DNA of 64,000 nt from Candidatus Komeilibacteria bacterium CG11_big_fil_rev_8_21_14_0_20_36_20 (lineage in GTDB: Bacteria; Patescibacteriota; Patescibacteriia; UBA1558; GWA2-36-10): positions 31,296 through 95,295 of the forward strand of contig PCWQ01000007.1 of the NCBI GenBank assembly GCA_002787405.1. Reading direction: 5' to 3'. The notes beneath the pieces are model-generated. The model was given only the letters and a program-made list of their open reading frames with translations. It was not told the origin of the DNA and made no database searches. Numbering within the stretch: the first letter of the stretch is position 1; every line of letters begins with the position of its first letter. Below, in pieces: positions 47,034 to 58,030 of the stretch. A program made the translations under genes and the position numbers.

Positions 47034-49307
47034 TCAAGACGGCTGAAACTCGCCGTTTTTAATTCTCTCGATAAAATCTTCGGATTGAGTCAAATATGGC
47101 TCGCCGAATTTTTTAACTTCTTCAGCAATAGCAATGGCCTGATCATTCATCCCCAAACTAGCGTAGGATAAAGCTAAACTAATATAATACTGGGGATTCT
47201 CTGAATACTGCTGCCTCAAAATATCGTAAAAATAAGCCGACCAAGTAAAATCTTGGGCGTTGACTGCTGCACTGGCCATGCGGTTCAAGGGTTCCTCTTG
47301 TTTATAATTCAAATTCATTGAATCCATGGTTTCAAGATATGGCTGCACTTTATCCGGCTGATGACTGGCCAATAAAACCATAACCATATTAATATAAGAT
47401 TCTAAAACATCGTCATTCAAATCTATGGCTTTTTGAAAATTAACCACCAAATCGCTCTGATACTTAGCGGCTTCTTCTGGTTTGCCCTGATCTGTCAGCC
47501 ATAAATAAAGATACAAATCAGCATAGCCCATTTCCTCATAAATTTGCAGTCTAGTAGGACTATATTTTAAAGCCGTTTCTCCCAACGGAAAAACTTTATA
47601 CAATCTATTTGGATCTAAAACATAAGTATAGTTATAATGACGCATAAATAACAAATAATTAGCTACGTCAGCTGGATTTTCTGCAATGCGTTTTTCCAAT
47701 TCCTGATCTATATGTGTGACATACTGTGTGGCATTATAGGGCGTAATTAACTGATGAACAATTAAACCATCAACAAATTCAACAACTCTTCTCCTAAATT
47801 CATTGGTGCCGGAAGTACGGTAATCAATTGCCTGAAAATAAGTATTAACCGCCTGAGGAACATCAACATTTTCCAAATGCAAGGCATCAATCACAGTCAA
47901 ATTGGCTTTAGCTTCTTTAAGATTAACCCAATACATAATTGGACCCAAGGCAATAAGGTAAACCACCAAAATAGCCGCCATAACTTTACGTCCAGTGAAC
48001 TCAAATTTAGGTTTGGTATATTTTTGAGCTATCAAAACTATAATCAAAAACAAAGGTAGATAAGTAACCATGGCCTCAAAAACAAAAATTCCTTGAACAA
48101 TAAAAGCTATAATGGCTAGAGCCAAAATTTGATTGCCAAAATCAATATTTTTTGATTCCTCTTTTCTCCCAGCCGTTGCTTTCTTTAAAACTATATAAAG
48201 CGGCCATAATATTAAAAGACTATACAAAAGCAAACCAATAATGCCCCCCGTAACTAAATGATCAAGAAAAATATTATGAGCTCGGTCAAACCAAACTTGT
48301 GAACCGGCGTGTGAATATATTTCCGGATTAAAATACTTGTTAAAAACAACAGAAAAATTTTCCTGACCATAACCCAAAATCGGCTTTTCTTTAAATCCCT
48401 GCCAAGCGGAATTCCAGGTCATTAAACGGGTCTGGGCGGTTCTTTCTGATAAAGAAATACTGGTCATTCTCCTTAGAGCTTCATTATTCTGAATAAAATC
48501 GCTTGAGCGATTGACATAGATAACGGCGCCCAGCACACACAAAATCAACCCCAGAGCAATTAATGAATATTTGATTTTTTTATGGCTTATTCGAAAAATA
48601 TTGTAGATAACAAAAATCAAGGCACTAGCTAAAATTGCCACAAAAGCACCACGAGTACCGGTCTGAACCATGACAAACAAATCAATCAAAATGGCCACAA
48701 TATAATAAATACTTAAATACTTATTGTGACGTTTAATCATCAAATAAAGACCAAAAAAGACCGCCAACAAAGAATAACCAGCCAGATAAGCAGCATTACC
48801 AATAGTCGAAGCGACCCGACCATCAGTCACTCCTGTTCTATTAATAAAATCAACATTAAAATACTGCAACAAGCCGATTAAGACCACTATTTGAGCGGCA
48901 ACGAAAAATACTTCCCATAAAAATAGCCACTCTTTTCGGTTGGAGATAAAATTACGCAGGATAAAAAATAAAATAAACATGTGAGACCAGAGCAAAAGGC
49001 CTTCTGATCTCTCAATATTACTCCAGAAGCTAAAATAAAAATTATCACCCAGTAAAGAGGAAAGAAACATAGAAACCAATAAGATAAAAAAGACAATCGT
49101 CAGCCAATCAATTTTAACCTTAATTTCTTTCTTCACTAGAACGTAAATGAGCCACAATAAGAGCAAGACTTCCACTAAAATTCTAAAAGCCAGGGCTTTA
49201 CTGTAAATATAGGGAAAGAAAAAATTACTATTAATATAAATAGGGGTCAGCATAATTAGAATCAAAGCTGACCAAATAAGCTTGGAAAATATTTTATCTG
49301 CTTTCAT
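47034..49307 (-). CDS. O-antigen ligase-like (Wzy_C) polytopic membrane protein with C-terminal TPR repeats; paralog of 2625..4739
   Basis: 757 aa. Shared blocks with 2625..4739 include FSFWSNIERSEGLLLW and QTGTRGAFVAILAS. The C-terminal half is TPR-like and soluble. Confidence 0.65.
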   Translation of the reverse strand: MKADKIFSKLIWSALILIMLTPIYINSNFFFPYIYSKALAFRILVEVLLLLWLIYVLVKKEIKVKIDWLTIVFFILLVSMFLSSLLGDNFYFSFWSNIERSEGLLLWSHMFILFFILRNFISNRKEWLFLWEVFFVAAQIVVLIGLLQYFNVDFINRTGVTDGRVASTIGNAAYLAGYSLLAVFFGLYLMIKRHNKYLSIYYIVAILIDLFVMVQTGTRGAFVAILASALIFVIYNIFRISHKKIKYSLIALGLILCVLGAVIYVNRSSDFIQNNEALRRMTSISLSERTAQTRLMTWNSAWQGFKEKPILGYGQENFSVVFNKYFNPEIYSHAGSQVWFDRAHNIFLDHLVTGGIIGLLLYSLLILWPLYIVLKKATAGRKEESKNIDFGNQILALAIIAFIVQGIFVFEAMVTYLPLFLIIVLIAQKYTKPKFEFTGRKVMAAILVVYLIALGPIMYWVNLKEAKANLTVIDALHLENVDVPQAVNTYFQAIDYRTSGTNEFRRRVVEFVDGLIVHQLITPYNATQYVTHIDQELEKRIAENPADVANYLLFMRHYNYTYVLDPNRLYKVFPLGETALKYSPTRLQIYEEMGYADLYLYLWLTDQGKPEEAAKYQSDLVVNFQKAIDLNDDVLESYINMVMVLLASHQPDKVQPYLETMDSMNLNYKQEEPLNRMASAAVNAQDFTWSAYFYDILRQQYSENPQYYISLALSYASLGMNDQAIAIAEEVKKFGEPYLTQSEDFIERIKNGEFQPS

Positions 49308-49314
49308 ATTTAAT

Positions 49315-50019
49315 TTAAAAAGTATGCTCCGGGTCTAATTCTAAAATTTTGTTTTTATAATACTCGGCCTTATTGGCGTCTAGTTGTTTATCTTTAAAGA
49401 AATAATACAAATACTGGTAAAAATTAACATCCGACTGTCCGGCCGGCTTACTCATTCCATCCAACATAATAGTCTCTACTCTATAGGACTCTGCCGGTAA
49501 ATAAGTTTCGTATAAATCAGCATAAGAAACATAATAGTGATAATAGCCAATATTATCTTTGTTAATGGATAAATCAAAATAATAAGCAGCCTGATCATAA
49601 TCTCGGGCAAATGACTTGTAATAGTTGCCTAAATTGGAAAAAGCTAAAGGATTGATGGGATTTAAAACAGTGTCATATTTCCAGGCCTCTACCGCCCCCT
49701 CGAAATCCATCAAGCCAAGCTTAAGATTGCCGATTTCTATCCATAAATCATAAACATCATAGTCATCCGCCTGATGTAAATATCCATAATCATTATTCAG
49801 CCGGTCCACTAAGTTCTGGGTAGACTCTTCATCCATATCCGTATCAGGAAAATCACTAAGCTGATAAACATAATCAATCGGTGGTTGATTATTATTATTT
49901 TGACCTTGGTTGTTATTAGAACCAAAAATCAACCAAATAGCTAGGGCGATAACCGCCAAAATTAAAATAATAAAAAGATTTTTTTTATTCACCCTGTTAG
50001 AAATTTTAAGATTATTCAT
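49315..50019 (-). CDS. hypothetical membrane-anchored protein (N-terminal TM; Asn/Gln-rich linker; Tyr-rich TPR-like C-terminus)
   Basis: A 234-aa ORF with a single N-terminal hydrophobic helix. Confidence 0.4.
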   Translation of the reverse strand: MNNLKISNRVNKKNLFIILILAVIALAIWLIFGSNNNQGQNNNNQPPIDYVYQLSDFPDTDMDEESTQNLVDRLNNDYGYLHQADDYDVYDLWIEIGNLKLGLMDFEGAVEAWKYDTVLNPINPLAFSNLGNYYKSFARDYDQAAYYFDLSINKDNIGYYHYYVSYADLYETYLPAESYRVETIMLDGMSKPAGQSDVNFYQYLYYFFKDKQLDANKAEYYKNKILELDPEHTF

Positions 50020-50117
50020 AAAATAAAACTTAATAATATGACCTCGCTAGATTTTGTGAATTTCTAACGGGGTTCATAATACTTGTCTATTGTATTATAT
50101 CTGCTTATATTTGACAA

Positions 50118-50147
50118 CACCCTTCCCCCTTTACAGGGGGAAGGGTG
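50118..50147 (-). terminator. candidate intrinsic terminator hairpin downstream of the surface-protein gene
   Basis: A 12-bp GC-rich stem (cacccttccccc / gggggaagggtg) with a 6-nt loop lies about 45-70 nt 3' of the stop at 50191. On the minus strand it is followed by a T-rich stretch. Confidence 0.5.
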
Positions 50148-50190
50148 AATTGTCTATCTCTAATTACTTATTGCAAGTAAAAAGATTTTC

Positions 50191-53100
50191 TTAACCTGAC
50201 CAGCTAATAGTATAACTTGGAGTTGACGTAGTGACAGCTCCTAAGCCGGATACGAGGTATCCATTATACCATTGTCCGTATTCTGTAGCGGTAGCTCCTG
50301 TTGTGTCTATACCTCTACCTTTATAGTTGTCTGACCAGACAAAGTTACCTTGATTTAAGGCGCCCCAAGCATCAGCATAGTTAGTATTAATATCTGTGGT
50401 TGGATTACCATAACCATCAGATGACGTCGAAGAAGCAGTATCACCTAACATAGCTACACTAACATTCTCTCCTGTTCCAGCAAGAGCAATAGTACAATTA
50501 TAGTAATAAGTCTCGCTAGAGCCGGCTGAAATTTGTAAAGGCTCTAATTCATCACTATGTGAAATAAGAGGATTATCAAAGGTGTAAGTATTATAGCCAC
50601 CATAGCCGTCACCTCCATCTAAATCGGTTGGATCAGCAGCAGTGCCGACAACATTACCGTCGCTATCTCTTAGATAACAACTGGTAACATTAATAGTACC
50701 ACCAGTAGCCACAGTAAGAGTAGCGCGATATAGCAACACTTCATTGCCCGAAGCATCAGCCGCCACATTAAAGGCATAAAGATCAATTGCGCCGTTAGTC
50801 AAAGATGTAGCTGCGCCTAAAGGAGCGCTGGCAGTTGAATGAGTAACAGTTGGCAAAGCTTTGTGAAGCACCATACCAGTAGTGGTTGAACCATTATAAG
50901 TCTCGGAAGTAACCACATCGTTAGAATCAACACCTGTGGTTTTAACACCATCTGTGCCGCCTAGACCAAATCTGACATCAGCGCCTGGAGTACCAGGAGC
51001 ATTATCAGCACTTGAACTAATAGTTCCTAGGTCAGCTTTAACAGTAATGGTTTTTGAACCGTCTTGAGGAATGGTTAAAGTGTTATTAGGAAAGTTGAAA
51101 GTATAGTATCCAGTTGATGGAATGGCAGCACTACCTAATAAAGTAGAACCGTCATATAAATACACTTTTGAGACATCCTGATAATTACCGGTAGCTGTAC
51201 CAGTAATATTACCGTCAGCCACAAAAACTTTCAATTGATCAAGATCAAGATTTTCATTAAACGCTTCCAGTCGAATATTACCAAAGGTTACTCCAGTAGC
51301 GCCGGCTCTAACAATTGCGGCGCTAGGATTGTTGTAAGTGCTAATGGTCAAAGTGCCGGCTGTGGCTACAGTCATGGTAGCACCCATGTCAGCGGTCAAA
51401 GTAACTATCCCTCTGTTTCCACTAGTAACACCATAAGCAATGACTGAAGCATTAGCTGTGGTGCTTACATCAACTAAACCAAAGATACCTACTTGTTCAG
51501 CAACAGCTCCGGTATTGACATCGGCAATCAACTGAATGGTCTTTGAAGTTCCTTTAGTAAGCACAATTGGATCATCAAAGGCAAAAGTTGAAGAAGCTGA
51601 ATCATAGCCATCGTTGTCTGCTGGGGCATCATTGACTGGACTCTTGGCTACACCACCGCTGCCAAAGACACCGTCATAAATAGTCAAGTTGGTGAAATTG
51701 GTGGAAGAGGCATGAACAACTATTGAAGTTATTCTAATATCTTCACCTGAATTTGTACCGTCAAAGTTCCAAGAACCCACTAAAACATCTTGAGCGCCGG
51801 CAATTACTGTAGCGTTGGCTGGCAAGGTGTTTCTAGTGACAGTCAAATTAGCGGCCTTAACTGTCTGGGTGTTGGTATCAACATTAGCTGCTGGGCTAGC
51901 GGTAATTGAATTACCGGTTACCTGACCAGTAGCAGTAATAGCGCTAGCTGCAGTTGCAAGTCTAGCATAAATAGTATCGTCAGTAGCCCATCCGCCGCTG
52001 ATATTCAAATTACCCATAATTGTATATTCACTCTCGCCAACTGGCAAAGTAAATGTATCCGTGAAAGCTACGGTTAAAGCATCATTGGTAATATCAGTTG
52101 GACCGGCCACAGTTACGCCATTGCTATCAACTATTTTAACTCCTTCCAAAGCATCTTCAATCTGAGCGCCAGAAGAAGAAACAATGGTTAAGGTCAATTC
52201 AGTGACGTCAATTGGTTCACCTTTAACCGTAAATTTAAAGGCGCCTAGAGTTTGGTCGCTTCCAACTGTAACATTGTCAGCACCAACACTGGATCCTCTT
52301 TCCACAGTCATATTACCATTAGCAATTTGAAATTCATTAGCGCTTAAGACTGGCTTAGTAGCAGCAGAACCAGTACCGCTATAGGTTGGGGTAATATTAT
52401 AACCATAAGTATTACCTTTTACTAATAGGTCTGTAGTTCTGTAGATACCTAAATCAACTGTTCGGGCTGAACCGCTCTCAACATCGGCTTGCACCTGATA
52501 TTGATAGGTCTGGCCTTTAGGAATAGTGGTGGCAGCAATACTAAAGTTAATATACTTACCATCAACCACACCGTCGGCGATCTTGGTACCGTCTTTTAAC
52601 AAGGCATATCCAGAAAGATCTTCACTTAAGCTGGCTGTACCTTCTTGGTAAACAGAAACCTGATTAAAGGTCACATCTTCAACTGAACCTGCTTGGATTT
52701 GGAAAGCAAAGAAAGTATAGTCCTGTTTGCCTACTTCAATGGTAGTAGAACTAGCATTGTTATAGGAACCTCTTTGAACAGTAGCTGTACCAATTGTAAT
52801 GGTATGGTTTAAAGTCTGGGTATTACCATAGGCAGGCAATGAGCCAATAACTGAACCACTACCTTTCAAAGTAATAGAAGCTAAACCAAGGGCTGGATTT
52901 TCACCAGCATAGCTGTCTAAAGAAGCAGCCATATTACCGGCTAAATAAATATATTGAGTGGTGTTGGCTGGGATGACAACATCCTTGGTAAAGGTAGCTT
53001 GGTGATTGGAGTTGAAAGTCTTTGAGTTTTGATCAAAAGGAATCATGGTGCTGCCGTCCAAAACATCAATGGTTGAAAAAGCAGCATCCTGCCCGATTCC

Positions 53101-53994
53101 ACCTCTTTGAACAACCATTGTGTCAATGGTTACTCCTTCGCTACCGGTGGTTAATTTAAGTTTGGTGAAAGGATATCTAGCGGCACCTTCAACTACAATG
53201 CCGGAAGCTGGCGTATCGCTAGCCAATGACACTGTTAGGTCGCCACCAGAAACTGGTCCACCGCCTTCACCCGGCATATAACCTGCCAGTTCTGTTTCTT
53301 CACCGGTGATTGATTCGCCGGTTGAATAACCATCTACGTTAGCCACGTCAATAACATAGTCATAACTAAAGTTATTGGCTTCAAAGGCATCAGAAGTAGC
53401 AAATGGTCGGACTGTATCGCCTTCACCGACATAATACAAATCCTCGCCCACCTGCAGCAATGTACCTTCTGGATACATAGTGCTTAAATCAGAACCAGTG
53501 GTATAGCTGGATGAAAAATAACCTGGGATAACATCTAGAACTCTAGATCCCCAATCGGCACCATACAAATCTTCAGCCACGTCTCCTGTAGGAATCCAGT
53601 GGAGTGTTCCACCCGGACCAACAGCATAAATTTTGGCTGTATTCATATGGGTAACCAATTTGGTTCCCGGTCGATAAGTCACGGCGCCGCCGTCTGCATA
53701 CAAATCCAGTTCAGCTACGTTAACTCTGACCACATTGTCAAAGTTATCATACCAAGTATTATATGTTTTTCCATCTGGGAAAACATATTTCATACCATCT
53801 GAACCAATGTAATAAACAGCTGCACCAGATTGACCTTCTAAGGCAAGCAAAGAGCCTGCTCCGTAATTACCAGCGGCTTTGGCTACTGGCGCAAAAGATA
53901 CGCCAACTGACCAAAGGGCAGTGGTAATCACCAAAGAAAATACAGCAAATTTCTTTAATAAGTGCATGTTTCTTTTTTTTAAAAAAGTCCCCAA
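50191..53994 (-). CDS. large secreted Thr/Ser/Gly/Ala/Val-rich surface protein (S-layer or adhesin-like, repeated beta-sandwich-like modules)
   Basis: 1267 aa. The signal-peptide-like N-terminus reads MGTFLKKRNMHLLKKFAVFSLVITTALWSVGVSFAPVAKAAG. Two related modules of about 90 aa are followed by more than 1000 aa of low-complexity T/S/G-rich repeats. GC content is about 45% against about 30% elsewhere. Confidence 0.7.
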   Translation of the reverse strand: MGTFLKKRNMHLLKKFAVFSLVITTALWSVGVSFAPVAKAAGNYGAGSLLALEGQSGAAVYYIGSDGMKYVFPDGKTYNTWYDNFDNVVRVNVAELDLYADGGAVTYRPGTKLVTHMNTAKIYAVGPGGTLHWIPTGDVAEDLYGADWGSRVLDVIPGYFSSSYTTGSDLSTMYPEGTLLQVGEDLYYVGEGDTVRPFATSDAFEANNFSYDYVIDVANVDGYSTGESITGEETELAGYMPGEGGGPVSGGDLTVSLASDTPASGIVVEGAARYPFTKLKLTTGSEGVTIDTMVVQRGGIGQDAAFSTIDVLDGSTMIPFDQNSKTFNSNHQATFTKDVVIPANTTQYIYLAGNMAASLDSYAGENPALGLASITLKGSGSVIGSLPAYGNTQTLNHTITIGTATVQRGSYNNASSTTIEVGKQDYTFFAFQIQAGSVEDVTFNQVSVYQEGTASLSEDLSGYALLKDGTKIADGVVDGKYINFSIAATTIPKGQTYQYQVQADVESGSARTVDLGIYRTTDLLVKGNTYGYNITPTYSGTGSAATKPVLSANEFQIANGNMTVERGSSVGADNVTVGSDQTLGAFKFTVKGEPIDVTELTLTIVSSSGAQIEDALEGVKIVDSNGVTVAGPTDITNDALTVAFTDTFTLPVGESEYTIMGNLNISGGWATDDTIYARLATAASAITATGQVTGNSITASPAANVDTNTQTVKAANLTVTRNTLPANATVIAGAQDVLVGSWNFDGTNSGEDIRITSIVVHASSTNFTNLTIYDGVFGSGGVAKSPVNDAPADNDGYDSASSTFAFDDPIVLTKGTSKTIQLIADVNTGAVAEQVGIFGLVDVSTTANASVIAYGVTSGNRGIVTLTADMGATMTVATAGTLTISTYNNPSAAIVRAGATGVTFGNIRLEAFNENLDLDQLKVFVADGNITGTATGNYQDVSKVYLYDGSTLLGSAAIPSTGYYTFNFPNNTLTIPQDGSKTITVKADLGTISSSADNAPGTPGADVRFGLGGTDGVKTTGVDSNDVVTSETYNGSTTTGMVLHKALPTVTHSTASAPLGAATSLTNGAIDLYAFNVAADASGNEVLLYRATLTVATGGTINVTSCYLRDSDGNVVGTAADPTDLDGGDGYGGYNTYTFDNPLISHSDELEPLQISAGSSETYYYNCTIALAGTGENVSVAMLGDTASSTSSDGYGNPTTDINTNYADAWGALNQGNFVWSDNYKGRGIDTTGATATEYGQWYNGYLVSGLGAVTTSTPSYTISWSG

Positions 53995-54371
53995 ACATTA
54001 TTTAATCATCTAAAATATAAGCGCTTCTGTTTGTTTTCTAAACAGAAACCAAACCATTATCTTGAGTGCCCCCAGCATACGCCGGACCGACCTTTCAGAC
54101 AACACTAAGCCAATGGGCTTATAAGTTAGTTTGATAAAAATTTTGTTTAGGAACGACTAATTAGAGCCCGAAATTGATTTCTCAACTTCAGGACTTACCA
54201 CATACCAATAAGTATATGGTCAAATCCCTAATCGCGCGCGATTTAGCGATAAGTTAGGGATAATAGCTTTCAAACTTTTTGAAAGCTAAATACCCTCAAC
54301 CTATCTGCCAACTCGACAAGCTGGATAATCGCGCTTTAAGGATTTTTTATAATTAATTATTAAACGACAAA

Positions 54372-55712
54372 TTAATTATTAATTTCCGTAACTGCAGAAT
54401 CATCGACTACTGGTTCTTCTAATTCTACTTCTTTTAATTCTACTTCATCAATCCCAACTGCAGAGGCCTCTACTGTTTCTGACTCTTCTTTTAAATTACC
54501 GTCCATATCAGCAGGAGTCGTGCTGGCTGTCTGTCCACTATCAATAGAATCCTTATTTTCTGCCTGCTTATTGTTGGATATCTGTTCTAAAACTGTTTCT
54601 GCCTCACTATTGATCTCTTTACTTTCAGAAACTTTATTAAGTGCATCTTTCAAGGCACCTTCTCCCAATAAAACCTTGGCTTCATCCAGAACAACCTCCG
54701 CTGCTCCCGGTTTTGACTTAATGCTATTAATGTTTGTTAAATCCTCTTGCTGGCCAACTGATGCATCTGTATTATTTTCTTGTTCTTCACCAGCAACATC
54801 CACCTTTTCTTTAGTGTTTTTAATTTCTGAAGACAAATCGTCAATTTCAGAGGCAATAATTTCAGTCACTAAATTTTTAATTGTTTGAGCATCCCTTTCT
54901 TCAATATAAGTTTGCGGAGTAGTACTATTAGTGGAAATCTCTTGGTCAATTACTGATTTTTTCATAGCTGATTCTACTTCTTCATGAACTTCTACCGCTA
55001 AATTGACCGCTGATTCTTTAGCTTCTTCATTAAATTTTTTAACATCATTCAACGCTTCTTTAAAAACTGCATTTTTACTCTTATTGGCTTCTTCCAATGA
55101 GCTCACTTTATTCTTAGTTTCCTTAGTAGCATCTTTAACTTTTTTAGCTAAAGAGACTGCTTCTACTGGTTTCTTCTCCTCTTTAACTATCTTCAAAGAA
55201 GTGTCAACTGCTGTGACGTCCTGTTCTAAATGGCCGACTGCCTTTTTTATTGCTTTTTCACTTTTGACAGTTTGTCCGGGTTGATCGGTTTTATTTAAAT
55301 CTTTCACAATTTTATCAATTTCTGCCAATCTTTTATTGACATGCTTAATATGAACTTCTGTCTCTCTAACCGGACTAAGAGTAACCGTTAATTCCGCTTT
55401 TTCTATTGATCTCTTAATCGGCCAAAGAACTTCACCAGGCACTGAAGCTTGAGCGGCAAAACCGACTCCTGAACCCATCATGATAATCAAAAATCCAGCA
55501 ATAACTTTACTAACCGAAGGAACAGTGCGGCGCATTACCCGACTAACAAATAAATCAACCTTTTCTGAATTGGTTAATTTTTGCGCTTTCATTAATCTGT
55601 TCTGAGCAGAGATTTCAGAAAGTAAATCATATTTAGTTGTGTCTTCCCATTTTTTATTCGGCTGTAATTCAGCTAAATTCTTTAGTTGGGAAATTTTTTT
55701 AGTTAAACTCAT
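54372..55712 (-). CDS. anti-sigma-factor-like protein (single TM; coiled-coil, acidic extracytoplasmic region)
   Basis: It lies immediately downstream of the ECF sigma gene. A short N-terminal cytoplasmic segment is followed by a TM helix (VIAGFLIIMMGSGVGFAA) and a long helical, Glu/Lys-rich C-terminus. Confidence 0.55.
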   Translation of the reverse strand: MSLTKKISQLKNLAELQPNKKWEDTTKYDLLSEISAQNRLMKAQKLTNSEKVDLFVSRVMRRTVPSVSKVIAGFLIIMMGSGVGFAAQASVPGEVLWPIKRSIEKAELTVTLSPVRETEVHIKHVNKRLAEIDKIVKDLNKTDQPGQTVKSEKAIKKAVGHLEQDVTAVDTSLKIVKEEKKPVEAVSLAKKVKDATKETKNKVSSLEEANKSKNAVFKEALNDVKKFNEEAKESAVNLAVEVHEEVESAMKKSVIDQEISTNSTTPQTYIEERDAQTIKNLVTEIIASEIDDLSSEIKNTKEKVDVAGEEQENNTDASVGQQEDLTNINSIKSKPGAAEVVLDEAKVLLGEGALKDALNKVSESKEINSEAETVLEQISNNKQAENKDSIDSGQTASTTPADMDGNLKEESETVEASAVGIDEVELKEVELEEPVVDDSAVTEINN

Positions 55713-55734
55713 ATATTTGAGATTATTTTATATA

Positions 55735-56286
55735 TTATTTTTCCGTAATTTCTTTTAATTTATTTAAAGCCCTATGTAAAATAACTCGAACATTATTTTT
55801 ATCTTTTTCTATAATTTGGGAAATGTCCTCAATTGATAAATCTTCCACATAACGCAAGAGTAGGATTTCTTGATATTCTGGCTTAAGTTGAGATAACTGC
55901 CGCAATAAATTATCTGCATCTAATGACTTATCTAAATTGGTTATAGTTTTATCAGTCAAATAATTATTTGTTTCGAAGATATAATCCAAAGGTAACTCCT
56001 GTCGATTGGATCTCCGATAATGATCAATCACGGCGTTGCGAGCTATGCGGAAAATAAATGCCTGGAAATTTTTAATATGCCTCTTATCAACTAAATGCTG
56101 CCAAATTTTTAAAAAAATATCTTGAGTTAAGTCTTCTGCTATTTGCTTGTTTGATACCTTGATCATAACAAAGCGGTAGATACGAGATACATATTTGTCA
56201 TAAAAAAAGGCAAAAGCGTCAGAATCCCCGGCTTTTAATTTTAAAAAAGCTATTCTTTCTTGTAAATTGTCTTTAAAACTTTTCAT
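55735..56286 (-). CDS. RNA polymerase ECF-type sigma-70 factor
   Basis: Region 2 (EDLTQDIFLKIWQHL...ARNAVIDHYR) and a region 4 HTH (LSIEDISQIIEKDKNNVRVILHRALNKLKE) are present. 183 aa. Confidence 0.8.
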   Translation of the reverse strand: MKSFKDNLQERIAFLKLKAGDSDAFAFFYDKYVSRIYRFVMIKVSNKQIAEDLTQDIFLKIWQHLVDKRHIKNFQAFIFRIARNAVIDHYRRSNRQELPLDYIFETNNYLTDKTITNLDKSLDADNLLRQLSQLKPEYQEILLLRYVEDLSIEDISQIIEKDKNNVRVILHRALNKLKEITEK

Positions 56287-56339
56287 ATATATAGACGTAA
56301 CAACCCTAAAAATATTACATTTTTAATAATTATAAATTT

Positions 56340-56353: not shown

Positions 56354-56619
56354 AAAAAAATAAATAAATCTTAATAATTTTTCTCTAATATAGTCATCTA
56401 AAATAAAGTGGAGCTAATTATAGCATTTTAGATGTTTTTTGTAAATGTAAATTCCCCACAAAATTTGAACTGATGATACCAAATATTAACATATTTTAGA
56501 TTATTTGTCTTATAAAAAGAGCCCTATATTTTATAAAGTTATCCACAGATATTGATAAAAAGTATAGAATATTCTATACTTAATTATATAAAATAATCAA
56601 AATATTAACTGTATATTAT

Positions 56620-56901
56620 ATGGAAAATATTATTCGTTTATCAGTATCTGAAGCAGCTAAATTGTTTGGGGTATCCACTAAAACTATTCGGCAAGCCATT
56701 AAAAAAGAGGAAATAAGATATATTGTGGTCAACGGTCGTTATAAAATAAACTTCGCTTCTTTAATGGAGTGGTCGCAACTTTCTACCCGCCGCGCTAATT
56801 TACTCAAACAACAGGGAGTTGGTCAGTATATTGATCGGTGGAAAATAAGGAATAAAAAATTCAGCCCCAGTGAAAAATTAATAAACAAAAAAACTTTCTG
56901 A
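56620..56901 (+). CDS. excisionase-family HTH (HTH_17) DNA-binding protein
   Basis: LSVSEAAKLFGVSTKTIRQAIKKEEIRYIVVNGRYKI resembles 27645..27932. Confidence 0.6.
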   Translation: MENIIRLSVSEAAKLFGVSTKTIRQAIKKEEIRYIVVNGRYKINFASLMEWSQLSTRRANLLKQQGVGQYIDRWKIRNKKFSPSEKLINKKTF

Positions 56902-56935: not shown

Positions 56936-58030
56936 TTATAGTTTGACTTCTAAATCCTGCTCTACACCCTCTCTAGAAACTTTAATAATAACAATGTCTC
57001 CGGGACGATAATTTTGAATAATTGAAGTTAGGGTTTTATTATTTGAGATGGCTGTATTGTTGACTGCGACAATTTGATCCCCGGCCTGTAAACCAGCTTG
57101 ATAGGCTGGAGAGTTGAAACTAACTGCTCTTAAAGTAGGGTGGAAGATAAAATTGCCTAATTCAGTAAAACCGCTATTATTCTCCTTGTCCACATACCAA
57201 ATACCTAAACTAGGCCTTTCTGTATTATTTAATAAATGTTTAACTGCTTGTTTTAAATATTCAGCCGGTAAAAGAACTTCGCTATCATTAACTTTATAAG
57301 CAAGTCCTAATAAATCCCCTTCCATATTAAAATACGGGGCGGCTAAAAAATTATCATTTGATAAATCATCAGACACCTGCAAATAGTAATCAATCCTATC
57401 ACTTGATAAGTACTGCCCTACACTATAATGAATATTAGATAAAAATGTTGCATAAAAAGTATGATAAAAACTATGCGGTAAATCAATATTAGTAAACAAT
57501 CTTTCTCCTGCTTTCAAACTATCAGTTAATTGAAAATCAACTGGTTGCAAAGACTGGCCATCTACCTTAATAAATACAGCTCCTGTAAATTCATCTATTT
57601 TAATGTCTTCTATAATATATAAATCATCATTAAGAGCCACCACACCCTGCTGATCAGTAATCACTTGATCAGTTGTCATCAACCAGCCATCAGAAGTCAC
57701 TACGACCGCTGAACCTAAAAATTGATCTTCATTAAACAATGGCTGCCCCACTGTCGCAATGGTCTTAACAGGCCGATAGACGCCGGCTACGCTATTTTGA
57801 TATTTATCAGCCACATTAGTCAATGGCTGCTCTATATTAATCTTGATGTCCCGCTGATTATTGATCAAATCTAAATAATTGACATCCGTCATTGGTTTAA
57901 AAGTCTTGGCCATTAGATATCCCCCAAAACCAGCCGCCGCTCCAAATAAAACCGCCAAAAGCGTCAAATTAAACAATGAAGGTGGCCTAGTGGTTGTTGG
58001 CCTCTCAAAATGAGTTTTTCTTTCTTCCAT
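56936..58030 (-). CDS. membrane-anchored HtrA-like trypsin-fold protein with a C-terminal PDZ domain; probably catalytically inactive
   Basis: GSAVVVTSDGWLMTTDQVI aligns to GSGFII..G.ILTNNHVV with His replaced by Gln. FNMEGDLLGL aligns to GNSGGPL with Ser replaced by Glu. The PDZ-like C-terminus reads GDQIVAVNNTAIS...GDIVIIKVSREG. Confidence 0.5.
   Translation of the reverse strand: MEERKTHFERPTTTRPPSLFNLTLLAVLFGAAAGFGGYLMAKTFKPMTDVNYLDLINNQRDIKINIEQPLTNVADKYQNSVAGVYRPVKTIATVGQPLFNEDQFLGSAVVVTSDGWLMTTDQVITDQQGVVALNDDLYIIEDIKIDEFTGAVFIKVDGQSLQPVDFQLTDSLKAGERLFTNIDLPHSFYHTFYATFLSNIHYSVGQYLSSDRIDYYLQVSDDLSNDNFLAAPYFNMEGDLLGLAYKVNDSEVLLPAEYLKQAVKHLLNNTERPSLGIWYVDKENNSGFTELGNFIFHPTLRAVSFNSPAYQAGLQAGDQIVAVNNTAISNNKTLTSIIQNYRPGDIVIIKVSREGVEQDLEVKL

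Follow-up and report, generated by a model that had tools for sequence, protein, structure and literature searches.

The 64-kb window, by which we mean the whole stretch of DNA that was analysed, contains an envelope cassette that is conserved across Patescibacteria (CPR). On the minus strand, on which all features given with coordinates below lie, the gene of an ECF sigma factor is followed by that of a single-pass DUF5667 membrane protein, a 404-nt gap, the gene of a secreted protein of 1258 aa and a strong hairpin. The three ORFs are found where the sequence-only reading had placed them; its gene order, sigma factor and hairpin hold, whereas its start of the large gene, gap length, repetitive protein and foreign origin had to be given up. 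In 61 of 66 loci the sigma gene lies upstream of the large gene on the same strand, and the synteny is kept down to 27-30% protein identity. Synteny and promoter evidence thus back the proposed coupling of an ECF sigma factor and a membrane anti-sigma-like partner to a giant secreted surface protein with a strong terminator. Our best reading of the region, to which we give a probability of about 0.6, is an ECF-controlled operon for a probably glycosylated envelope protein of the S-layer type.

The sigma factor (group 4, 183 aa; 55735..56286) contains the Pfam domains Sigma70_r2 and Sigma70_r4_2 and scores 90.7 bits against TIGR02937 (sigma70-ECF, cutoff 42.9), which agrees with the identity first proposed for it. 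The best equivalog model, the BldN-family TIGR02952, remains below its cutoff (122.6 vs 206.45 bits), and no description of this ECF sigma group was found in the searchable literature. The best promoter-like site of the region is of the housekeeping type with an extended -10 (TTTACA-N17-TGnTATAAT, 11 of 12 matches plus the TG) and is located upstream of the sigma gene at 56417..56445; both of its hexamers are invariant in nine related loci (alignment A8). An ECF-type promoter, TGTAAT-N16-CGTC, occupies 56294..56319, and its CGTC ends 7 nt before the sigma ATG, implying a leaderless, autoregulated sigma mRNA. This promoter is invariant in nine close loci, and about 28 loci from many clades have TGTAAY-N16-CGTC at the corresponding place; in approximately 1.07 Mb the motif was counted 61 times on the gene strand and 4 times on the opposite one. 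The earlier suggestion to look for an ECF-type -35/-10 upstream of 53994, in the leader of the large gene, yielded none: the single match in the 64-kb window (0.15 expected) adjoins the sigma ATG instead, and operon read-through is therefore the simplest link to the large gene in this genome. In five Doudnabacteria-type loci without an adjacent sigma gene (L016, L019, L020, L048 and L049) the motif precedes the large gene by 230-300 nt, and no ORF intervenes; in L040 it is situated between the DUF5667 gene and the large gene. The position of the motif in front of the large gene where sigma is not adjacent supports regulon membership.

The second gene (54372..55712) encodes a putative membrane anti-sigma factor of 446 aa, assigned by its PF18915 match, hydropathy and place after the sigma gene. 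The protein consists of a conserved cytoplasmic N-terminal helix motif, one transmembrane segment at about residues 67-90 (the only hydrophobic segment by hydropathy), an extracytoplasmic DUF5667 domain matching PF18915 marginally (27.9 bits vs a cutoff of 27, residues 91-191) and a variable acidic tail. The single-pass partner with an acidic ectodomain described before is thus confirmed (D+E 76 vs K+R 47), and in about 50 loci sigma is followed by a protein of the same TM-DUF5667 architecture. Searches recovered no known anti-sigma domain in the protein of the window; we infer its anti-sigma function. Upstream of the sigma gene, 56936..58030 encodes a membrane-anchored HtrA-like PDZ protein (PDZ_2, 48.2 bits), syntenic in many loci, which is a pseudoprotease: alignment to DegP-like chains shows that the catalytic triad is lost (His to Gln, Asp to Thr, GNSGGP to NFLAAP). 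A small HTH_17 gene is divergently placed in this window and in L005.

The large gene (50191..53967) almost certainly starts at ATG 53967 (MHLLKK...): this start is the one that lines up with the N-terminal ends of homologous proteins, and it gives a protein of 1258 aa instead of the 1267 aa assumed before. Homology, AF2 models and composition mark the product as a large secreted envelope protein and a candidate S-layer protein. Residues 1-31 (53875..53967) form a signal peptide with n-, h- and c-regions and an AKA/AG site, as judged by eye, from hydropathy and from conservation in homologs. They are followed by two alpha/beta modules and by a predicted series of beta-sandwiches of the Ig/cohesin-like kind, and the C-terminus carries a conserved motif, GNFVWSD...QWYNGYLVSGL. 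At least 289 homologs are conserved over their full length, with members in many CPR classes, relatives are encoded in 233 GTDB species genomes, and the family shares 35-70% identity over the whole length, with invariant residues. Pfam, NCBIfam and PDB sequence searches returned no match; by sequence comparison, the protein represents an unannotated, full-length-conserved family in Patescibacteria. The AF2 models (pLDDT 89.2 and 86.6) are all-beta, the C-terminal half is predicted to be compact (pTM 0.74), and the structural matches are generic beta-sandwiches of the surface-protein type. Structure prediction therefore bears out the Ig-like part of the body once described as low-complexity Ig-like repeats, with an Ig/cohesin-like fold, but not the repetitive sequence: conservation extends over the whole length, tandem repeats are absent, and BLASTP detects no internal ones. 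The two N-terminal modules are indeed related, albeit weakly (local score 63 vs 32.5 ± 6.2 for shuffles, maximum 57), but no Pfam or PDB match supports the sugar- or cell-wall-binding role that had been suggested for them. The protein is acidic, contains 2 Cys, is rich in T, G, A, V and S, and lacks homology to characterised S-layer proteins and anchoring domains; we infer that it is most likely the major surface (S-layer-type) protein. Among the genes most strongly expressed in cultured Paceibacteria are those of large, secreted, Ig-like proteins (PMC10936435), and S-layer lattices are predicted in a preprint for proteins from Patescibacteria that are 1131-1274 aa long (10.1101/2024.05.28.596244).

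The GC content of the large gene is 0.428 compared with 0.334 for the window, ranging from 0.41 to 0.46 along the gene and from 0.29 to 0.36 in the flanks; the elevation reported earlier is real, at about 43% rather than 45%. Such a step would be expected if the gene had been acquired horizontally, as was considered, yet its GC3 of 0.302 falls among the values of neighbouring genes, its amino-acid composition and host codon usage lead one to expect a GC of 0.420, and dozens of related genomes have the gene at the same place in the syntenic order. The higher GC is fully explained by amino-acid composition and gives no sign of foreign origin; synteny, GC3 and the composition-expected GC together refute horizontal acquisition, to which we leave next to no probability.

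The hairpin located 3' of the large gene, previously placed at 50118..50147, has a stem of 12-13 bp, extends over 50113..50154 and is GC-rich and of the terminator type (-33.5 kcal/mol vs -8.3 for shuffles), with a weak U-tail in this window. An equivalent hairpin is present in 50 of 50 loci (mean -26.7 vs -10.7 for shuffles), in many of them with U-tails. Further downstream, 49315..50019 encodes a membrane-anchored, TPR-like protein of 234 aa with an N-terminal hydrophobic segment; 35 of 55 loci have a homolog of it no more than 3.5 kb downstream, and TPR matches of its orthologs are faint or weak. It is followed by a Wzy_C membrane protein of 757 aa with a C-terminal TPR-like region (47034..49307; PF04932, 77.3 bits), whose superfamily is that of O-antigen ligases and O-oligosaccharyltransferases. 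A Wzy_C homolog is encoded downstream of the large gene in 43 of 55 loci, with GT4 glycosyltransferases after it. The 757-aa protein is accordingly placed as a candidate glycosylation enzyme for the surface protein, which, given these conserved genes, is probably O-glycosylated.

The most unusual part of the locus, overlooked in the earlier note, is the leader that separates the DUF5667 gene from the large gene. With the start moved to ATG 53967 its length becomes 404 nt (53968..54371) instead of 375, and it folds with an MFE of -140.6 kcal/mol vs -89.8 ± 5.3 for shuffles (z = -9.66). Leader blocks are invariant among loci whose proteins are just 36-70% identical (alignment A2), and Rfam 15 contains no family that matches the leader of the window or the strong copies from other lineages. 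A TAATAAT-like box, conserved immediately 3' of the DUF5667 stop, would be a candidate for a promoter of the large gene's own. The clade-specific 5' domain (54222..54344), delimited by alignment A2, the fold and motif positions, comprises an invariant CG palindrome AATCGCGCGCGATT at 54230..54243 and a long hairpin at 54248..54305, the tip of which varies among relatives. The 3' domain is enclosed by a long-range helix (53987..54154) present in the MFE and centroid folds, with the arms GUUCCUAAACA (54144..54154) and UGUUUGGGGAC (53987..53997); RNAalifold retains 6 of its pairs across 10 sequences, with compensatory changes. Within this domain are a covarying hairpin (54023..54049), whose stem sequence is different in every relative, and the AAAGGUCG bulged hairpin (54052..54116).

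The latter is built of a P1 5' arm, the unpaired AAAGGUCG (54088..54095), a P2 hairpin and a P1 3' arm, and single-sequence folds show this architecture in about 40 loci. In alignments fitted to the structure of the model, which inflates the pairing counts, pairing reaches 94% vs 54-57% when shuffled, with 13 of 14 pairs compensatory, and the covariation score is 0.81-0.86 vs 0.19-0.20 for shuffled and at most 0.18 for slid controls. Over 2.1 Mb the model gives 34 matches, 30 of them upstream of the large gene; among the 4 off-target ones, 3 were carried over from the seed alignment and 1 is weak and lies upstream of the sigma gene (L030; 16.3 bits, E = 5.9). Scored with the pan-CPR model, the copy in the window falls short of significance (12.1 bits, E = 4.6), but it is positionally orthologous to those of L005 (29.5 bits) and L035 (22.9 bits). 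No conserved pseudoknot partner was found for the loop of the element. The AAAGGUCG bulged hairpin is a previously undescribed pan-CPR covarying RNA element, absent from Rfam.

A mechanism may be proposed in which the sigma gene is transcribed from the housekeeping-type promoter and also from its own ECF-type promoter, the autoregulated mRNA being leaderless. The short conserved cytoplasmic helix of the DUF5667 protein would hold the sigma factor, and the extracytoplasmic domain would monitor the condition of the envelope. Transcription in this genome would most likely read through into the leader and the large gene and end at the very strong terminator; control of the large gene here presupposes such passage through 404 nt of stable structure. 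The AAAGGUCG hairpin is most likely a protein-binding, processing or stability element and would allow the level of the structural mRNA to be set independently of that of the regulators. The large protein would be exported by Sec as an acidic Ig/cohesin-like chain of the S-layer type, and the Wzy_C/TPR and GT4 enzymes would probably glycosylate it.

The gene order could also be conserved without direct regulation, the large gene having a housekeeping promoter of its own at the leader start and the ECF sigma factor controlling other genes. This would account for the absence of an ECF motif from the leader in the window and for an AT-rich TTTAATAAT block conserved at the leader 5' edge in close relatives, and the sigma gene, too, has a housekeeping-type promoter. 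However, no -35 partner is conserved for the AT-rich box, synteny persists at 27-30% protein identity, and the shift of the ECF motif to the front of the large-gene leader in the five loci without adjacent sigma, and in L040, is hard to explain without regulon membership; we consider this explanation unlikely. Slightly less probable still is that the leader blocks work mainly at the DNA level, as operators bound by a repressor (the neighbouring HTH_17 protein, for instance), and not as functional RNA. The occurrence of the invariant palindrome AATCGCGCGCGATT in a 33% GC genome would suit such a role, as would a similar AATCGCGCGC element that, in L001, L023 and L005, immediately precedes the ECF -35 in front of the sigma gene, and the divergent HTH_17 gene here and in L005. 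On the other hand, the stems are lineage-specific in sequence yet complementary, including G-U pairs workable only on the sense strand, the folding energy is far beyond that of shuffles, and the pan-CPR AAAGGUCG element has no palindromic symmetry. The two views are compatible, as the 5' palindrome could act at the DNA level and the remainder of the leader at the RNA level.

As for the large protein, it is possible, though doubtful, that it is an adhesin for host attachment, or another kind of extended fibre on the surface of an episymbiotic CPR cell, tuned by the ECF module upon host contact. The structural matches include cohesins, pilins, MSCRAMM-type adhesins and integrin legs and, being generic, would suit an adhesin equally well as an S-layer protein; the N-terminal modules differ between lineages, as expected for a binding tip, and two homologs have a dockerin match. 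Moreover, in the interpretation of Kuroda et al., secreted Ig-like or PG-binding proteins with high expression serve in host attachment. Against this stand the full-length conservation at a near-constant size of ~1200-1300 aa, with one copy per locus, across free-living-type groundwater lineages, and the compact C-terminal half. An acidic, almost Cys-free, T/G/A/V/S-rich composition, a strong terminator and a long, structured leader, all present here, typify S-layer genes with very high expression, and lattices are predicted for CPR proteins of similar size in the preprint (10.1101/2024.05.28.596244). We thus favour an S-layer-type protein.

The cassette resembles E. coli sigmaE-RseA-DegS in its ECF sigma factor, membrane anti-sigma-like protein and adjacent membrane-anchored HtrA-family PDZ protein. 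However, no RseP-like gene is seen in the cassette, and the HtrA-like protein, lacking the His-Asp-Ser triad, cannot be a DegS-type site-1 protease. Like known structured 5' leaders and cis-regulatory RNAs (Rfam families, ribosomal-protein leaders, riboswitches), the leader presents unpaired conserved sequence on covarying helices, in a fixed 5' position and with one gene family; it differs from them in having neither an Rfam 15 match nor a conserved pseudoknot partner.

S-layer genes with adjacent S-layer glycosylation (slg) clusters occur in Geobacillus stearothermophilus (sgsE-wsaB) and Paenibacillus alvei (spaA), and highly expressed S-layer genes typically combine a strong terminator with a 5' UTR that is long and structured. 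The cassette shares the latter two features, a large, acidic, Cys-poor, Thr/Ser-rich secreted protein, and a Wzy_C-superfamily membrane protein with glycosyltransferases after the structural gene. Unlike in those systems, the large protein, known from sequence and models, carries no SLH, CWB2 or other known anchoring domain and has no sequence or specific structural similarity to characterised S-layer proteins. In phylum, size class and multi-domain beta build it is similar to the predicted Patescibacteria S-layer proteins of the preprint, such as Doudnabacteria A0A1F5NRV7 (1264 aa) and Parcubacteria GMX59286.1 (1185 aa), one of which comes from a highly expressed secreted set; the searchable preprint text makes no mention of sigma/anti-sigma linkage, promoter or leader RNA (10.1101/2024.05.28.596244). 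The Doudnabacteria member identified here, A0A1F5NKF4, is a different accession from A0A1F5NRV7.

With the ECF sigma/membrane anti-sigma modules of Gram-positive bacteria (B. subtilis SigX, SigM, SigV and SigW; Streptomyces BldN-RsbN) the cassette has in common a two-domain group-4 sigma factor, a co-located single-pass membrane partner and an autoregulatory promoter of the classic 'AAC'-N16/17-'CGT' type, here TGTAAY-N16-CGTC, which we take to be close to the SigX/SigM/SigV consensus. BldN-RsbN controls the chaplin and rodlin surface proteins of Streptomyces, and the control of a cell-surface structural protein that we propose here would be alike, although the BldN equivalog threshold is not reached. 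In contrast to the Gram-positive modules, the partner has a short conserved helix and DUF5667 in place of a recognisable class I anti-sigma domain, the promoter adjoins the ATG and gives a leaderless mRNA, and the structural target lies inside the same cassette across the whole radiation.

The cassette lies on the minus strand. Its 5'-most listed gene encodes a membrane-anchored HtrA-like PDZ protein (56936..58030), followed by genes for a 183-aa sigma factor (55735..56286) and, directly after it, a 446-aa DUF5667 protein (54372..55712). A long non-coding gap then separates these regulators from the large gene, listed as an ORF at 50191..53994, behind which stands a strong hairpin. Downstream of the hairpin come a 234-aa membrane/TPR-like protein (49315..50019) and a 757-aa polytopic membrane protein (47034..49307) with a Wzy_C domain (PF04932, 77.3 bits against a cutoff of 31.7). 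This agrees in outline with the sequence-only reading, which had described an ECF sigma factor, a single-pass membrane protein, a gap, a large ORF and a hairpin; Pfam, TIGR02937 and hydropathy bear out the arrangement. A small HTH_17 gene (56620..56901, plus strand) sits between the HtrA-like gene and the sigma gene; such a MerR/excisionase-like insertion on the opposite strand is also seen in the related locus L005 (L005:4753-5049) and is absent from L001, and it could be a local regulator or a mobile-element remnant.

In three homolog contigs the gene order is identical: HtrA-like protein, sigma factor, DUF5667 protein, gap, large gene, TPR protein, one or more Wzy_C proteins and GT4 glycosyltransferases. 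The synteny survey was extended to 80 GTDB loci. Among those with enough sequence, a sigma gene was found on the same strand no more than 3.2 kb upstream of the large gene in 61 of 66, even where the large proteins share only 27-30% identity, and downstream a Wzy_C homolog was present in 43 of 55 loci and a TPR protein in 35 of 55. The cassette is very probably a functional unit. One Portnoybacteria-type locus carries a second large ORF of 1188 aa upstream of the cassette (L003:1984-5550), with an IS200-type Y1 transposase gene after it (L003:5622-6239). Many TPA MAG records that contain the Patescibacteria cassette (L008-L010, L015, L018, L022, L025-L028 and others) bear discordant titles such as 'uncultured Gammaproteobacteria', 'Candidatus Saccharibacteria' or even 'Thermoplasmatales archaeon', which look like placeholder or wrong taxonomic labels.

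The sigma factor scored 54.7 bits for Sigma70_r2, 55.1 bits for Sigma70_r4_2 and 90.7 bits for TIGR02937 (cutoff 42.9). It has regions 2 and 4 only and its length falls within the ~170-200 aa of ECF (group 4) sigma factors. The best-scoring model was the BldN-family equivalog TIGR02952, but its 122.6 bits remain below the cutoff of 206.45. In an alignment of the region upstream of the sigma gene from nine close relatives (A8), two elements are invariant: a housekeeping-type promoter, TTTACA-N17-TGnTATAAT (window 56417..56445), and an ECF-type promoter, GTGTAAT-N16-CGTCT (56294..56319, minus strand). The core of the latter, TGTAAT-N16-CGTC, has the form expected where an ECF sigma regulates its own gene: a -35 element of 'AAC' type and, some 16-17 nt on, a -10 element of 'CGT' type. 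Because CGTC ends 7 nt 5' of the sigma ATG, the autoregulated sigma mRNA is predicted to be leaderless.

Within the 64-kb window, TGTAAT-N15-17-CGTC occurs only at the sigma ATG (0.15 occurrences expected). The search for an ECF promoter upstream of 53994, which the sequence-only reading had proposed, was negative in this genome: neither a strict nor a relaxed pattern found one in the leader, and the relaxed pattern added nothing near the large gene. Across all loci (~1.07 Mb) the motif occurs 61 times on the gene strand against 4 on the opposite strand. In about 28 loci, drawn from many clades, its end lies 7 nt from the sigma ATG on the upstream side; in Portnoybacteria-type loci it stands immediately before the DUF5667 gene, and in L040 between the DUF5667 gene and the large gene. 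In five Doudnabacteria-type loci without an adjacent sigma gene (L016, L019, L020, L048, L049) it precedes the large gene by 230-300 nt, and no ORF intervenes. That the motif moves in this way is the strongest evidence at hand for placing the large gene in the regulon of this ECF sigma; in the lineage of the window, read-through from the sigma promoters would be the simplest mechanism for its transcription. In six Uhrbacteria-type loci (L072, L073, L074, L078, L080, L081) the motif falls at a fixed offset, ~319 nt inside the apparent sigma ORF, and in L078 and L081 an ATG follows it after 7 nt; either the sigma start is mis-set there or the motif marks an internal or second promoter.

In the DUF5667 protein of the window a single hydrophobic segment spans about residues 67-90, the marginal match to DUF5667 lies just beyond it, and the ectodomain is acidic (76 D+E against 47 K+R), just as had been read from the sequence. 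In about 50 loci the product of the gene behind sigma was invariably built alike: a conserved cytoplasmic motif at the N-terminus (L-K-x-L-x-x-h-x-P-x-x-x-W-x-x-x-x-R/K-x-x-L-L), then a single TM helix spanning about residues 55-75, then an extracytoplasmic part whose length varies. A Pfam search of the window protein and of three orthologs, read down to E <= 1, matched no class I anti-sigma domain (ASD, zf-HC2 or RskA type); DUF5667, located after the TM helix, was the only match. Topology and co-conservation with sigma fit a membrane anti-sigma factor. Our literature searches returned nothing on DUF5667, on ECF sigma factors in CPR or on the linkage of sigma to the large gene. The HtrA-like protein, conserved upstream of sigma, was considered as a DegS-like site-1 protease. 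Alignment to DegP, DegQ and DegS revealed the replacements His to Gln, Asp to Thr and GNSGGP to NFLAAP; since the catalytic His, Asp and Ser are lost, the protein is not a DegS analogue, and by its sequence it is a membrane-anchored pseudoprotease, which may serve as a sensor or adaptor.

The start of the large gene had been placed so as to give a 1267-aa protein and a 375-nt leader. Homolog N-termini, MSL(L/I)KK..., align in register with MHLLKK of the window, so the start is almost certainly the ATG at 53967, which gives a protein of 1258 aa and a gap of 404 nt. MHLLKK is followed by 20 hydrophobic residues and AKA|AG, a pattern kept in homologs, and by inspection and hydropathy the protein appears to carry a conventional Sec signal peptide. 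At least 289 homologs, every one annotated 'hypothetical', can be aligned from end to end at 35-70% identity; their sources are Parcubacteria-, Komeili-, Buchanan-, Doudna-, Portnoy-, Uhr-, Falkow- and Magasanikbacteria-type genomes, and 233 GTDB species genomes encode a relative. The family has many invariant Gly, Pro and Asp positions and a C-terminal motif, GNFVWSD...QWYNGYLVSGL, while the N-terminal modules vary by lineage. The protein had been called repetitive and low-complexity, a description that did not hold: the gene has no tandem repeats and BLASTP detected no internal repeats in the protein. The two N-terminal modules, previously taken for related copies of a sugar- or cell-wall-binding unit, are indeed weakly related (score 63; shuffles 32.5 +/- 6.2, maximum 57), and Pfam and NCBIfam gave no match to the whole protein or to its isolated N-terminal, middle and C-terminal pieces. 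A search of PDB sequences with the family profile also returned nothing. AlphaFold2 modelled residues 32-640 with pLDDT 89.2 and pTM 0.57 and residues 601-1258 with pLDDT 86.6 and pTM 0.74, as a string of beta-sandwiches preceded by two small alpha/beta modules.

The large gene is GC-rich, as claimed earlier, at 0.428 against 0.334 for the window, rather than the ~45% first given, and a foreign origin had been suggested on that ground. Its GC3, however, is 0.302, like that of the neighbours, and its expected GC is 0.420 when the protein is back-translated with codon frequencies taken from nine other genes of the window; the excess therefore stems wholly from a Thr/Gly/Ala-rich composition, and GC3, the composition-expected GC and synteny together rule out horizontal transfer. 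The mature protein contains 126 D+E against 53 K+R and 2 Cys and is rich in T, G, A, V and S; with 12.6% T, 11.7% G and 10.3% A it matches the typical composition of S-layer proteins. These properties, like the strong terminator-type hairpin and the long structured leader, fit a major envelope protein of S-layer type, and we lean towards an S-layer subunit. The same properties are compatible with an adhesin, and searches for an S-layer anchoring module (SLH, CWB2 etc.) or for homology to a characterised S-layer protein were negative, the structural matches being to generic folds only. A preprint from 2024 (10.1101/2024.05.28.596244) puts forward predicted S-layer lattices for proteins from Patescibacteria that measure 1131-1274 aa, the size class of the large protein, and one of the candidates described there was drawn from highly expressed secreted proteins of cultured Paceibacteria (PMC10936435). 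Exact look-ups of members of our family returned A0A1F5NKF4, A0A2H0VER5, A0A1F5QBV1 and A0A1F5P3U2; A0A1F5NRV7, listed in the preprint, is not among them.

The hairpin behind the large gene (50118..50147), described as strong from the outset, is real: with its flanks (50113..50154) it folds to -33.5 kcal/mol against -8.3 for shuffled sequences, and a check for an intrinsic terminator gave a stem of this dG and the tail AAAUAUAAGC. Of 50 loci compared, all 50 have a GC-rich hairpin behind the large gene, averaging -26.7 against -10.7 kcal/mol for shuffles and often bearing a U-tract.

The 404-nt leader (53968..54371, minus strand) folds to -140.6 kcal/mol, shuffles giving -89.8 +/- 5.3 (z = -9.66). 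It contains blocks that are invariant among loci whose large proteins are just 36-70% identical, and between them stems that differ in sequence and length yet are still complementary. The 3' domain is closed off by a long-range helix (54144..54154 with 53987..53997), which ten relatives retain, with compensatory changes; the 5' domain (54222..54344), which is clade-specific, contains a 28-bp-class hairpin and an invariant CG palindrome. This palindrome, AATCGCGCGCGATT (54230..54243, minus strand), stands out in a genome of 33% GC, and the similar AATCGCGCGC lies just upstream of the ECF -35 box in the sigma-upstream regions of L001, L023 and L005 (A8); it may be a DNA operator rather than an RNA feature. 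Other conserved leader hairpins, each specific to its clade, were seen in Buchananbacteria-type loci (L015, L018, L037, L038, L043, L059, L061), where GUUGUUAGGUUCGCCUAGGCGUAACAAUAUC lies at about -60 to -90 from the ATG, and in Doudnabacteria-type loci (L016, L019, L020, L048, L049), where UUGAUUGUCNCAAUUGAACAAUUAAA lies at about -30 to -60.

One leader element is pan-CPR. The conserved AAAGGUCG, 78-214 nt upstream of the large-gene ATG, stays single-stranded, flanked on its 5' side by the first strand of a helix, P1, and on its 3' side by a hairpin, P2; the second strand of P1 comes immediately after P2. The element is present in about 40 loci (e.g. L058:5864-5910, L061:5851-5897, L078:5860-5910). 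A strict descriptor found 27 perfect instances in ~11 kb of upstream zones and 24 in the remaining ~2.2 Mb, several of the latter still being upstream of a large gene at other offsets. Since the variable stems defeated alignment by MAFFT/RNAalifold alone, two copies of the same geometry served as the starting point for bootstrapping covariance models (R1 to R3). They gave 34 matches in 2.1 Mb, 30 of them upstream of a large gene and 4 off-target, of which three are R2 false positives carried into the R3 seed that persist by construction and the fourth is weak (L030, 16.3 bits, E = 5.9, upstream of a sigma gene). In alignments fitted to the structure of the model, pairing reached 94.3% against 56.8% for shuffles with 20 sequences (A6) and 94.0% against 53.8% with 34 sequences (A7); covariation was 0.805 against 0.188 (slid controls <=0.145) and 0.861 against 0.201 (slid controls <=0.177), respectively, and 13 of the 14 pairs showed double compensatory changes in both. 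The window copy (54062..54106 in the frame of the model, 54052..54116 on the minus strand with extended P1) scored only 12.1 bits, and its membership rests on positional orthology with L005 (29.5 bits) and L035 (22.9 bits) and on its own fold.

Several more ordinary explanations of the leader were considered. A 'TATAAT-like' box at ~54055 might have been a promoter; it is the 3' strand of helix P1 and covaries with its partner, which rules this out. The hairpins between the DUF5667 gene and the large gene might have marked a terminator or attenuator, a reading rejected since they lack U-tracts in relatives. Known RNA families (RNase P, 6S, tmRNA, riboswitches, ribozymes) are ruled out by Rfam 15, which gave no gathering-level match in the window and nothing above chance level in the leader and in the strong copies from L058 and L061. 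Complements that could pair with the GGUCG loop as a pseudoknot were not enriched nearby over shuffles and none was conserved, so a protein or ligand contact is more likely. In several lineages, among the window-clade copies of the element (e.g. L001, L005, L008, L024, L081; A11 columns 81-91), the last 3-4 nt of the P1 5' arm (GACC/GAUC) can pair instead with GGUC of the conserved loop, and this alternative mini-hairpin would compete with P1 and could act as a switch.

From these results a model may be put forward, to which we give a probability of roughly 0.6. The housekeeping promoter would provide basal transcription of sigma and its membrane partner, which would bind it; the partner would release sigma in response to a signal for which the DUF5667 ectodomain is the presumed sensor, perhaps together with the PDZ pseudoprotease, and the leaderless ECF promoter would amplify the operon. 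Transcription would then run through the structured leader into the envelope-protein gene and end at the strong hairpin. The leader, the AAAGGUCG element above all, probably stabilises or processes the structural mRNA or mediates feedback, so that a very abundant product and low-abundance regulators could come from one transcription unit. The large protein would be secreted, would probably receive O-glycans from the Wzy_C/TPR and GT4 enzymes, and would assemble at the surface of the cell, possibly as a lattice. A bolder view, which we consider unlikely, takes the AAAGGUCG hairpin for a new cis-regulatory RNA class that spans the phylum and is devoted to the gene for the major envelope (S-layer) protein of CPR. 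On this view the hairpin, an ECF sigma that amplifies itself from a leaderless mRNA and a DUF5667 anti-sigma factor of non-canonical type would make up a previously unknown circuit by which organisms of minimal regulatory repertoire match S-layer supply to the growth of the cell surface; AAAGGUCG could, for example, be where the surface protein, the envelope-sensing module or a small ligand binds so as to exert feedback on the stability or translation of the mRNA.

A large part of bacterial diversity belongs to the CPR/Patescibacteria, whose cells show conspicuous surface layers by cryo-EM; to our knowledge, hardly anything has been characterised of the genes behind these layers or of how they are regulated. 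The locus supplies a concrete, widely conserved candidate for the main CPR envelope protein, a testable regulatory model (ECF promoter motif, leaderless sigma mRNA, non-canonical membrane partner, pseudoprotease neighbour) and a new covarying RNA element restricted to the large-gene leader. The promoter motif can be used now for ECF regulon prediction in hundreds of CPR genomes, and the RNA model for annotating the 5' end of the large gene and for seeking processing or feedback in existing metatranscriptomes. If the large protein is an S-layer subunit, it becomes an obvious target for structural work and for studies of cell-cell attachment of CPR episymbionts.

Compared with known systems, the cassette resembles S-layer/slg loci in combining a structural gene with glycosylation genes, and differs from them in having no defining S-layer domain. 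BldN, which controls surface proteins, is the closest functional analogy, although the sigma factor of the cassette falls below the BldN equivalog threshold. The cassette would work like the ECF/anti-sigma modules of Gram-positive bacteria, and its promoter type is classic. We regard it as a surface-protein operon under ECF control that has three unusual features: a partner of non-canonical type, an autoregulatory promoter that would yield leaderless mRNA, and a new RNA element. All three are conserved across a large, poorly understood radiation.
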